In this document: positions 21,575-23,474 of the stretch, one piece after another | Layout of the letters: each line of letters opens with the position of its first letter | How positions within the stretch are numbered: position 1 is the stretch's first letter | Assembly: GCA_016840085.1 (NCBI GenBank) | Contig: JAEOTA010000004.1 | Span: 128,001 to 192,000 of the forward strand | Direction: 5' to 3' | DNA: 64,000 nucleotides | From: Promethearchaeota archaeon | Lineage (GTDB): Archaea > Asgardarchaeota > Lokiarchaeia > Sigyniarchaeales > SOKP01 | Translations under genes and position numbers: made by a program | Notes under the pieces: model-generated | Database searches by the model: none | Seen by the model: only the letters and a program-made list of their open reading frames with translations | What the model was told of the DNA's origin: nothing

Positions 21575-22366
21575 ATGCATTTCAAAAAAAGGCATGATTT
21601 TAGACACAAGGTTTTCAAGAATCCCCCTATAATTGAAGCTCTATTTGAACTTAGATGGAAAGTCAGAGAAGAAGGAGAACCTCCAATTATGTTAATAGAT
21701 AAAAAATTTAAGTTTTTTCCTGGAAGATTCTACGAATATATTAAAAATGATTATCCAGAAGTTGAGGTTCTTCAAAATTCTAGAATACCTGATGATGTAG
21801 ATGAATTTTTACCACGATTTAGATTCAGAAAAAAACCAAACTCATATCCTTTGATACAAATTGGACCTGGTATAATTACTATTAATTTTGATAAAAACTT
21901 TACTCAAGAACGGTTTTTTAACACTTGTCTGGAAGTATTAAAAATTCTTTTTGAAGTTTTAACAGACATTGAATTAAAGGAGGTCATTTTACATTATATT
22001 GATGGTTTTATATTTGATTATGAAAGAAATAATGCTTTTCATTATCTCGAAGAAAATTTGTCAACTTACTTTAAATTTAATGAAGATTTATTCGAAAACA
22101 CTAAAATTAATTCAATACCCATCAAGTTTCATCTTGAAGCTAATTTCCATGTAGAAGAACCTCCTGGATATTTTATGTGTCAATTTAGAAGTGGAAAGAA
22201 AAGAATTGAAAAAGAAAAAATTCTATTAATGGATACAATCTTCCGAAGTTTTGGTGAAGATCTTCCAAAAAAAGAAGAGCTTGATAATTGGTTATATAAT
22301 GCTGATGAATTAATCCATAATTGGTTTTTAAAAATGATTGATAAAATTAAATATAAATTTGAATGA
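21575..22366 (+). CDS. TIGR04255-like protein
   Basis: FKNPPIIEALFELRW N-terminus, RFRF...LIQIGPGIITIN, LHYID, LLMD...IHNWFLKMI; 263 aa. Confidence 0.75.
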   Translation: MHFKKRHDFRHKVFKNPPIIEALFELRWKVREEGEPPIMLIDKKFKFFPGRFYEYIKNDYPEVEVLQNSRIPDDVDEFLPRFRFRKKPNSYPLIQIGPGIITINFDKNFTQERFFNTCLEVLKILFEVLTDIELKEVILHYIDGFIFDYERNNAFHYLEENLSTYFKFNEDLFENTKINSIPIKFHLEANFHVEEPPGYFMCQFRSGKKRIEKEKILLMDTIFRSFGEDLPKKEELDNWLYNADELIHNWFLKMIDKIKYKFE

Positions 22367-22369
22367 AAA

Positions 22370-22864
22370 ATGAATAGTCCATTGTTGAAAATATCGGATG
22401 AAGGAAAAACCGTCTGGGATACAACAACCAGTGAATTTGAAGAACCGAAAGAAGATATATCTTGGATAAAATCTAGTTATGTCCTAAAAGATCTTATTGA
22501 AAATTGGGAACTAATCAATGAATTTAAAGAATCGAAAGAAGATATATCCTGGATAGGAACTAGTTATATCTTAAAGGATCTTATCGAAGATCGGAAGCCA
22601 TTCAGGATCAATAAAGAAATCTTAAAATTTGCTTGTATACTGCTTACATCTTCATTTGTTGCTCTTGGATTTGAAGATGACGCTTTTCAAACATTAGTAA
22701 AAGAAAATCCTTTAAAGAATGTATTACCTAAAATTATACCTACTCAAATTGCATTAATTAAAATCAAGGCATATAAAGAAGAGGTCAAAAAAAAAATAGA
22801 AAAACGAAATAAAGAAGAATACGAAAAACTTGAAAAATTATCATTAAAACCTTTTGATGTTTAA
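22370..22864 (+). CDS. hypothetical protein with two 29-aa tandem repeats
   Basis: EFEEPKEDISWIKSSYVLKDLIE / EFKESKEDISWIGTSYILKDLIE; 3-nt gap to the upstream gene. Confidence 0.7.
   Translation: MNSPLLKISDEGKTVWDTTTSEFEEPKEDISWIKSSYVLKDLIENWELINEFKESKEDISWIGTSYILKDLIEDRKPFRINKEILKFACILLTSSFVALGFEDDAFQTLVKENPLKNVLPKIIPTQIALIKIKAYKEEVKKKIEKRNKEEYEKLEKLSLKPFDV
22433..22594 (+). repeat. 87-bp-period intragenic tandem duplication
   Basis: Copies start at 22433 and 22520. Confidence 0.85.
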
Positions 22865-23474
22865 AATGGTATATGATTCGGTATCATTAGAAGATAATTT
22901 AAGACAAGGTGACATATTTTGGAATCTACCTTATGTATATTTTAATTTGGATGAATTATTCGTATTTTATAATGAATCTTTGTTTGAGGAAACTTCTTGG
23001 ATAGATTTGAAAAAAGAAGAGGTTCAAATTTTAGCTAGTGCTGAAAGAACCTATGCAATAATCTTATCCCAAGATTGTGATTGCATAAGAGAAGAATTTA
23101 TCTCATTATTTATAGTCTCAGATTGGGACAAAGCATATACATCTAGTAAAAAATGGATGCTAGAAATTATCAATCTTAATAGATCGAGCCCTTCAAAAAT
23201 GTATTTACCACATGACAAGAATTTTAATATTGAAAAAAAAATGCATATTGATTTTTGTCAGATTTTTCAAATAAAACGAGAAAATCTTGAAAATCTTAAG
23301 AATCTAAGGATTTGTCGGTTAAATGAGGAAGCTATGGAACATTTTCGTGAAAAAGTAGCATATTATTTTCATAGGTATGCTTTTGATGAATATTATCCAT
23401 TAGATAAGAATGAAATGGATAAATATGAGAAATGGCGAAATGAGAAATGTGAAAGAAGAATATATCAAAAATAA
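22857..23474 (+). CDS. hypothetical protein, PemK/MazF-like fold predicted
   Basis: LRQGDIF...AIILSQDCD...MHIDFCQIFQIKRENL..LRICRLNEEAMEHFREKVAYYF parallels the PemK pattern; coupled to the upstream gene. Confidence 0.6.
   Translation: MFKMVYDSVSLEDNLRQGDIFWNLPYVYFNLDELFVFYNESLFEETSWIDLKKEEVQILASAERTYAIILSQDCDCIREEFISLFIVSDWDKAYTSSKKWMLEIINLNRSSPSKMYLPHDKNFNIEKKMHIDFCQIFQIKRENLENLKNLRICRLNEEAMEHFREKVAYYFHRYAFDEYYPLDKNEMDKYEKWRNEKCERRIYQK

Follow-up and report, generated by a model that had tools for sequence, protein, structure and literature searches.

Organization of the locus

Three small, closely packed genes in the genome of a Promethearchaeota archaeon, a member of the Asgard archaea, form a real and conserved cassette, which we believe to be a mobile, three-part system of the toxin-antitoxin kind. 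They lie in a window of 64 kb (positions 128001-192000 of contig JAEOTA010000004.1, in an assembly of 4.68 Mb with about 30% G+C). By 'the window' we mean hereafter this whole stretch of DNA, and its own numbering is used for coordinates unless another contig is named. The cassette consists of three co-directional open reading frames (ORFs) on the + strand, with the following features.

Gene 1: 21575..22366, + strand; 263 amino acids (aa), TIGR04255 family, conserved lead gene, with a predicted two-repeat alpha/beta saddle
Gene 2: 22370..22864, + strand; 164 aa, fast-evolving middle protein, presumed antitoxin or adaptor
Tandem duplication inside gene 2: 22426..22599, + strand; two units of 87 nucleotides (nt), each coding for a 29-aa repeat with W and Y
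Gene 3: 22866..23474 (alternative starts 22854, 22857), + strand; 202 aa, predicted MazF/CcdB fold, presumed toxin

A first-pass annotation, made from the letters of the sequence, had described these genes as tightly coupled, and so they are. Three nucleotides separate gene 1 from gene 2, and what follows depends on the start chosen for gene 3: an ATG at 22866 (202 aa) stands 1 nt past the stop of gene 2, while a TTG at 22854 (206 aa) or an ATG at 22857 (205 aa) creates an overlap of 8-11 nt. In the alignment of the family the conserved start is at 22866 (M-I/V-Y), and the MFK extension is found in 7 of the 18 close homologues. Each of the three proteins has homologues (gene 3 in 318 representative clusters, gene 1 at 215 genomic loci, and gene 2 in two entries besides the window's own), which identifies the ORFs as real genes rather than chance reading frames. 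A scan for sigma-70 promoters and terminators was uninformative for this AT-rich archaeal DNA.

The cassette begins 149 nt past the left copy of a direct repeat of about 81 nt, the two copies of which (21346-21426 and 30828-30909) are 82-91% identical and enclose about 9.5 kb. In a genome of the same genus (G223, locus L187), the sequence corresponding to window position ~20292 is joined directly to that of ~30821, and about 10.5 kb, cassette included, is absent there. This empty site shows that the segment carrying the cassette (about 20293-30820) is an insertion or a variable island.

The third gene

The first-pass annotation had placed gene 3 in the PemK/MazF fold on the strength of a few motifs. 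These motifs (QGDI, ILSQDCD, IDF and RICRL) are all present and fall within the most conserved columns of the family. Sequence comparison takes us no further into known territory: gene 3 has no match in Pfam (E <= 1), NCBIfam, PADLOC, PHROGs or the sequences of PDB. Leaving aside the protein of the window itself, it has 18 close homologues, and a profile search gave 318 representative clusters; the names of their sources include the Loki's Castle sediment metagenome, Hodarchaeota and Sigynarchaeum. Pfam domains are absent from all of the 95 members examined, and PemK does not appear among them at E <= 0.1.

Structure prediction is far more telling. The AlphaFold (AF2) model, built from 95 sequences, has a pLDDT of 95.6 and a pTM of 0.84, and the top Foldseek matches to it are all MazF proteins (E 1e-4, probability 1.0, TM to target of about 0.7). 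When the model was compared with 48,161 chains using VIA, the best match was MazF of Staphylococcus aureus (4mzm_A), with Z 13.2, a root-mean-square deviation of 2.9 and 112 of 115 residues aligned. The best 11 chains are all MazF, Kid or CcdB (Z 8.8-13.2, with further MazF chains at 12.3 and 11.7, and CcdB at 10.3). Next below come the type III toxins CptN, AbiQ and ToxN (Z 4.5-6.9), then unrelated Tudor-like barrels at a Z of about 4. The model, Foldseek and VIA together confirm that gene 3 is predicted to adopt the fold of MazF, Kid and CcdB, an SH3-like barrel with a C-terminal helix. Residues 10-172 form the core, into which a beta-hairpin and a helix are inserted, and a conserved C-terminal extension (173-202) follows. 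Conservation in the family falls on Q14, G15, D16, P22, Q69, D70, C71 (invariant), D72, R75, Y113-L114-P115, R148, R151, H159, R161, R170, Y177, E183 and Y187.

The lead gene

Gene 1, which contains NPPIIEALFELRW, had been assigned to TIGR04255 in the first reading of the sequence. The NCBIfam model leaves no ambiguity on this point, as it matches gene 1 with 82 bits for a cut-off of 30 (E 5.7e-23, model positions 2-244 of 252), and a search of the whole genome recovers gene 1 as TIGR04255 as well. In Pfam, gene 1 has no family at E <= 1, hence none to the SecB family.

The AF2 model of gene 1 (42 sequences, pLDDT 91.5, pTM 0.89) consists of two repeats of a beta-sheet and a long helix. Its nearest neighbours according to Foldseek are TBP, AdoMetDC and RepD, at a low TM of 0.2-0.4, together with TBP-like transcription factors of giant viruses. 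VIA-align puts taurocyamine kinase (Z 8.7) and McsB (Z 8.5) ahead, values that the tool itself rates as borderline. Its best matches as a group, which are guanidino kinases, McsB, glutamine synthetase and PafA/Dop, span Z 5.5-8.7 with about 170-197 residues aligned, TBP reaching only Z 4.8. Gene 1 is thus predicted to be a two-repeat alpha/beta saddle, TBP-like or guanidino-kinase-like at borderline scores. The columns best kept among 114 members of TIGR04255 are mostly hydrophobic (L19, P61, F84, Y141 and F251), with no invariant charged set; a His kept in 96% of these members is Asp in the gene 1 of the window.

A SecB-like chaperone had been proposed for gene 1. This proposal found no backing: besides the missing sequence match, no SecB chain stands among the listed Foldseek or VIA matches, although absence from such a list does not exclude the fold. 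With neither a SecB sequence match nor a listed SecB fold match, the label 'chaperone' is one of analogy only.

The middle proteins

Gene 2 evolves so fast that it all but escapes comparison. It has no family in Pfam, NCBIfam, PADLOC or PHROGs and no match among PDB sequences; a search of 5.8 billion clusters yielded two homologues besides the window's own entry, and the Asgard loci add one clearly alignable relative. Its N-terminal half is acidic, as had been noticed at the outset (pI 4.56 for residues 1-85). The duplicated aromatic motif noticed at the same time is also there, in the form of a tandem duplication (22426-22512 and 22513-22599, 80% identical), but it is not conserved. In the four clearly related middle proteins, the 29-aa repeat is doubled in that of the window and in P0171, partial in P0172 and absent in L018; being lineage-specific, it is unlikely to be the key to recognition. 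The general layout of gene 2, as seen in alignment A5 and in charge and hydropathy, is a conserved N-terminus of about 25 aa, variable acidic repeats, a hydrophobic stretch (83-101) and a conserved basic C-terminus of about 65 aa.

Middle proteins linked to other third genes are more instructive. Those that accompany PIN domains and those that accompany the short form of the MazF-like protein have their N-terminal 80 aa or so in common (hhalign probability 97.6%, E 3e-12), while their C-terminal parts are toxin-specific. This toxin-independent segment (residues 1-80) is a feature of the largest group of middle proteins; the gene 2 of the window shows conservation of its N-terminal 25 and C-terminal 65 residues or so, nothing more. 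With no similarity to the other groups detected, the two-part architecture that we ascribe to gene 2 is inferred from its relatives and from alignment A5.

Distribution of the cassette

That the three families should co-occur elsewhere had been set beforehand as a test of the proposal, and co-occur they do. Of 400 Asgard genomes, 28 contain a match to the gene-3 profile and 44 a match to TIGR04255. The complete trio is found in 24 of the 30 distinct Asgard gene-3 loci, always as TIGR04255, then an ORF of 113-214 aa, then gene 3, tightly packed or overlapping. Seen from gene 1, a relative of gene 3 takes the third place in 19 of the best 29 Asgard TIGR04255 loci; elsewhere this place is held by a GNAT domain (PF00583, E 1.3e-6), by a weak HEPN-like match (E 0.016, below cut-off) or by a family of about 150 aa. 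The latter, present at five loci (L053, L057, L062, L063 and L064) as proteins of 150-155 aa with motifs DW.KY.TPE and NRAHS, follows middle proteins of 203-266 aa and has no Pfam match; it may be a further type of toxin in the same family of cassettes.

The genome studied here has a second trio, on contig C60 (L010, 5245-7254, minus strand), consisting of TIGR04255, a 201-aa protein and a MazF-like protein. It is very divergent, its gene 3 being 27% identical to that of the window and its gene 1 barely alignable. Next to it (7443-10501) are encoded two proteins, one of 369 aa that looks like a coiled coil and one of 650 aa in which a P-loop motif was recognized by eye; a 613-aa protein similar to the latter lies near the trio of genome G033 (L013). 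Within the genus, gene 3 is present in 4 of the 53 genomes searched. A related-locus search of genome contigs with alignment A1 gave no relative, and neither gene 1 nor gene 3 of the window matched a plasmid in a tblastn search.

To look beyond Asgard archaea, 215 relatives of TIGR04255 were collected from GTDB genome contigs by means of two short peptide patterns, and the counts that follow are taken from the best 80 of these 215. They come from many phyla of bacteria and archaea. A gene-1 ORF is present in 80 of 80, and in most cases a middle ORF comes next, then a third gene. This third gene is MazF-like in 46 loci when judged by BLAST clustering and in about 50 when judged by profile, in a long form (207-225 aa) and a short one (171-184 aa); in 17 it carries a PIN domain (PF01850, E down to 6e-16). 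A third place in which MazF-like, PIN, GNAT and weak HEPN-like proteins replace one another is the signature of a toxin slot, and fits the logic of toxin-antitoxin systems.

The history of this exchange can be followed, if roughly, in a quick maximum-likelihood tree of 69 gene-1 proteins, from which 12 of the 80 loci, with no assigned third gene, were omitted. Proteins linked to the long MazF-like form make up one supported clade, those linked to PIN and to the short form are interleaved, and well-supported branches force at least 4-5 switches of toxin, with phyla and domains of life thoroughly mixed. The gene 1 of the window is on a very long branch, and its placement is unsure. Toxins have been exchanged repeatedly among TIGR04255 cassettes, and the cassette itself is sporadic and mobile and passes freely between bacteria and archaea. 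Downstream of the trio in 10 bacterial loci are mostly unrelated housekeeping genes, which makes the trio a self-contained unit. One copy (L194), with proteins of 266, 189 and 149 aa, is carried by a prophage on the 634-kb plasmid NZ_CP118267.1 of Pantoea sp. Lij88 (170558-172406), where it is flanked by the lysis cassette on one side and the small terminase on the other; its first product has been named a TIGR04255 protein by PGAP, and the other two are annotated as hypothetical. One bacterial gene 1 compared with a phage collection found no match.

Around the cassette of the window, the island also encodes a TPR protein, zinc-ribbon proteins, a leucine-rich-repeat protein and a 359-aa protein with a weak HEPN match (pEK499_p136). 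Just outside the island (31036-32037) is a gene for a 333-aa protein, unusually long for an antitoxin, that has a MazE/AbrB-type domain at residues 43-85 (PF04014, E 1.3e-5).

A probable three-part toxin-antitoxin-like cassette

We read the three genes, with a probability of about 0.7, as a self-contained and horizontally mobile cassette of three parts, akin to toxin-antitoxin systems. Small, adjacent, co-directional and coupled genes, one of which has the fold of a toxin, in a patchy and mobile distribution, are what is generally expected of type II systems. A further trait of such systems, an antitoxin that autoregulates the operon through a DNA-binding domain, was not seen here: no DNA-binding family was found in the middle proteins scanned, gene 2 included (Pfam; for gene 2 also NCBIfam). 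Gene 3 would be the toxin, a very divergent protein with the predicted MazF/CcdB fold, most likely acting on RNA. Gene 2 would be a modular antitoxin or adaptor, the C-terminal part of which would neutralize gene 3 while the N-terminal part would engage gene 1, as the related cassettes suggest by analogy. Gene 1, the conserved partner that heads cassettes whatever their toxin, would most likely control the antitoxin: it might stabilize it, bring in the DNA binding or regulation that is missing from the middle protein, or sense a trigger. Loss or displacement of gene 2 would then free gene 3 and stop growth, in the service of island addiction or of abortive infection.

Several observations weigh against this reading. 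The Pfam model of PemK (PF02452) does not match gene 3, nor anything else in its own genome at 1e-6, and comparison of the gene-3 family with 23 canonical MazF proteins from Asgard archaea by hhalign is not significant (probability 2.5%), the last beta-alpha unit alone being aligned. MazF proteins cleave RNA with an Arg placed before strand 2 and a Thr or Ser after strand 3 (R25 and T48 in MazF of Bacillus subtilis). In gene 3, the position of this Arg would fall, judging by secondary structure, at residues 60-62, which are not conserved; what is conserved in its stead is Q69, D70, C71, D72, R148, H159, R161 and R170. The fold, moreover, is also that of the gyrase poison CcdB. Gene 1 matches known folds at the noise border of the tool (best Z 8.7). 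The window's type of gene 2 shows no similarity to the other groups of middle proteins (hhalign probability 0.1). Finally, none of the three proteins matches a family of PADLOC-DB 2.0.0 at E <= 1.

Of what had been proposed for this locus, the fold of gene 3 and the co-occurrence of the three families are borne out, and the details of chaperone and ribonuclease (RNase) are not. The unconserved position of the catalytic Arg leaves the RNase mechanism not established for gene 3; judging from the modelled fold, RNase activity is plausible.

How the control may operate

The explanations that follow overlap, and their likelihoods are not meant to sum.

The first has TIGR04255 act as a chaperone, which would bind an unstable segment of gene 2 and shield it from degradation, the toxin being freed once this shielding is lost. 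Like SecB-like chaperones, gene 1 is a conserved accessory gene paired with many types of toxin and antitoxin, and in the largest group of middle proteins the shared segment is indeed independent of the type of toxin. At locus L022 (G202:C92, 2105-3397, minus strand), a single ORF of 431 aa joins gene 1 to the middle protein, residues 15-267 matching TIGR04255 and residues 243-425 the Asgard middle-protein profile. This was seen once, in a metagenome-assembled genome; the two genes may be naturally fused there, or an error of assembly may have shifted the frame. Other facts fit poorly. As discussed above, gene 1 has neither the sequence of a SecB nor a SecB chain among its listed fold matches, and related middle proteins do not all keep the aromatic repeat of the window's gene 2. 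The segment shared in the largest group spans about 80 aa at the N-terminus instead of extending the C-terminus by a short tail, and the order accessory-middle-toxin is unlike that of higB-higA-secB. We regard the chaperone as a possible solution, yet on the whole a doubtful one.

The same degree of doubt attaches to the view that TIGR04255 is an autoregulator of its operon, binding DNA (or RNA) and recruited through the N-terminus of the middle protein. The order regulator-antitoxin-toxin matches that of omega-epsilon-zeta and of paaR-paaA-parE, and a separate regulator would make sense where the scanned middle proteins have no DNA-binding domain of their own. Two-gene versions that lack gene 1 (L036, L038, L039 and L044) point in the same direction. 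They consist of an ORF of 85-91 aa followed by the short form of gene 3, and the basic C-terminal tail of this ORF resembles the MazF-specific tail of the middle proteins from three-gene versions (E 1e-8 to 3e-3). Its N-terminus, in 3 of these 4 loci, looks like a ribbon-helix-helix where the three-gene versions carry the gene-1-associated domain. This likeness was judged by eye, and Pfam left it unconfirmed, giving but a weak match to DUF7557. At L036, two TAA stops interrupt the toxin frame. Structure adds an argument: the nearest Foldseek neighbours of gene 1, TBP and the TBP-like viral transcription factors, have a DNA-binding saddle, but these matches are at the low TM and VIA scores given above, and gene 1 is slightly acidic (pI 6.1).

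Somewhat less likely still is a role of TIGR04255 as an anti-virus sensor, which would release the toxin, in an abortive infection, on recognizing a protein or nucleic acid of the virus, a model that is compatible with both the chaperone and the regulator. A sporadic, mobile distribution and swappable effectors are typical of defence systems. The copy of the window is on an inserted island, those of C60 and G033 are near genes for large P-loop ATPases (motif seen by eye), and that of the Pantoea prophage occupies, between lysis genes and terminase, a usual spot for accessory or defence genes. This must be set against the lack of any PADLOC match for the three proteins, the mostly housekeeping neighbours of the 10 bacterial loci, and the failure of the bacterial gene 1 to match the phage collection.

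That TIGR04255 should be an enzyme, kinase-like or ligase-like, modifying its partners so as to neutralize or activate them as in type VII toxin-antitoxin systems, is very unlikely. It is true that its best VIA matches are the catalytic domains of guanidino kinases, McsB, glutamine synthetase and PafA/Dop, but these scores are at the level which the tool reports for models with no true match, and the 114 members have no invariant set of charged residues, the best-kept His being replaced by Asp in the window. The least credible proposal, in which the trio is not a toxin system at all and forms a harmless housekeeping or regulatory complex that uses a MazF-like fold for binding RNA, would account for the unconserved catalytic position of gene 3, but against it stand the PIN and GNAT domains that can take the place of the third gene, the patchy distribution, the transfer between domains of life and the location on an inserted island.

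We can now return to the toxin-antitoxin-like cassette and extend it, in a tentative way and with the odds rather against us, to a more general proposal. TIGR04255 and the N-terminal domain of its partner might constitute an unrecognized, universal module for the control of toxins, a saddle-shaped sensor or regulator present in Bacteria and in Archaea, Asgard archaea included. It would, time and again, have captured unlike poisons, among them a new MazF-fold family, PIN, GNAT and HEPN-like proteins, to be released on a specific signal such as infection by a virus.

What is at stake is worth spelling out. No function is known for TIGR04255, large though the family is, and Pfam has no model of it; if it organizes three-part toxin modules, the family would at last be assigned a function. 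A new family of MazF-fold toxins would also be defined, with conserved residues of its own, among them an invariant Cys. A third kind of accessory-dependent toxin-antitoxin system would take its place beside the SecB-dependent toxin-antitoxin-chaperone (TAC) systems and the regulator-type trios. The fact that the cassette crosses the boundary between bacteria and archaea has a practical consequence: the Asgard host is not open to manipulation, but E. coli can serve for tests of bacterial orthologues.

Comparison with known systems

The literature searched contained no mention of TIGR04255 or of CHP04255 that we could find, and a search for three-part toxin-antitoxin systems gave only TAC, HipBST, retron and kinase-phosphatase systems. 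As no published description of a TIGR04255-led cassette was found there, the cassette is apparently undescribed.

Among two-gene systems, class 8 hicBA has long HicB antitoxins (342-356 aa) devoid of a DNA-binding domain; these are described as starting with a domain to which no function is assigned, continuing with one likened to lysyl-tRNA synthetase and ending in the HicB fold (Gerdes, 2024, mBio, PMC10865869). TIGR04255 is not named in that work, and neither three-gene cassettes nor MazF-like toxins are described there (PMC10865869). MazEF, Kis-Kid and CcdAB are closer in one respect, since the predicted fold of gene 3 matches nearly the whole of the MazF, Kid and CcdB chains (Z 8.8-13.2) and a small, translationally coupled gene lies directly upstream. 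Yet gene 3 has no PemK match in Pfam, exceeds these toxins by about 90 residues, owing two inserts and an extension conserved at its C-terminus, and displays a distinct conserved set with its invariant Cys; the upstream protein is not MazE/AbrB-like, and the third gene looks obligatory.

Panacea invites comparison of another kind. There too, a single conserved, non-toxic component has evolved with many toxin domains in bacteria and archaea (PanA, PMC8832971). PanA, however, is itself the antitoxin of two-gene systems, whereas here a separate protein seems to work through an adaptor domain on a modular antitoxin. With omega-epsilon-zeta and paaR2-paaA2-parE2, the cassette shares the order accessory-antitoxin-toxin and the lack of a DNA-binding domain in the antitoxin itself. 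As accessories, omega and PaaR belong to the small repressors of the ribbon-helix-helix or helix-turn-helix type, in contrast to the 250 aa of TIGR04255, which has no known DNA-binding motif, and the middle protein appears here to carry a domain dedicated to its partner.

The closest parallel is with TAC systems, of which HigB1-HigA1-SecB(TA) of Mycobacterium tuberculosis and CmdTAC are examples (PMC6377645, PMC11618068). These differ from our cassette in that their accessory protein is a SecB homologue, encoded last, where the predicted two-repeat saddle of TIGR04255 is encoded first; in that their antitoxin ends in a short C-terminal tail, ChAD, where the largest group of middle proteins begins with a shared segment of about 80 aa; and in that the middle proteins scanned here have no recognized DNA-binding domain. 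With an accessory outside the SecB family, another gene order and an N-terminal shared segment, the cassette is not a member of the TAC group. It resembles TAC all the same in its logic: three genes, a conserved accessory protein combined with several unrelated types of toxin and antitoxin, and a presumed antitoxin endowed with an extra segment that stands apart from the part that would bind the toxin.

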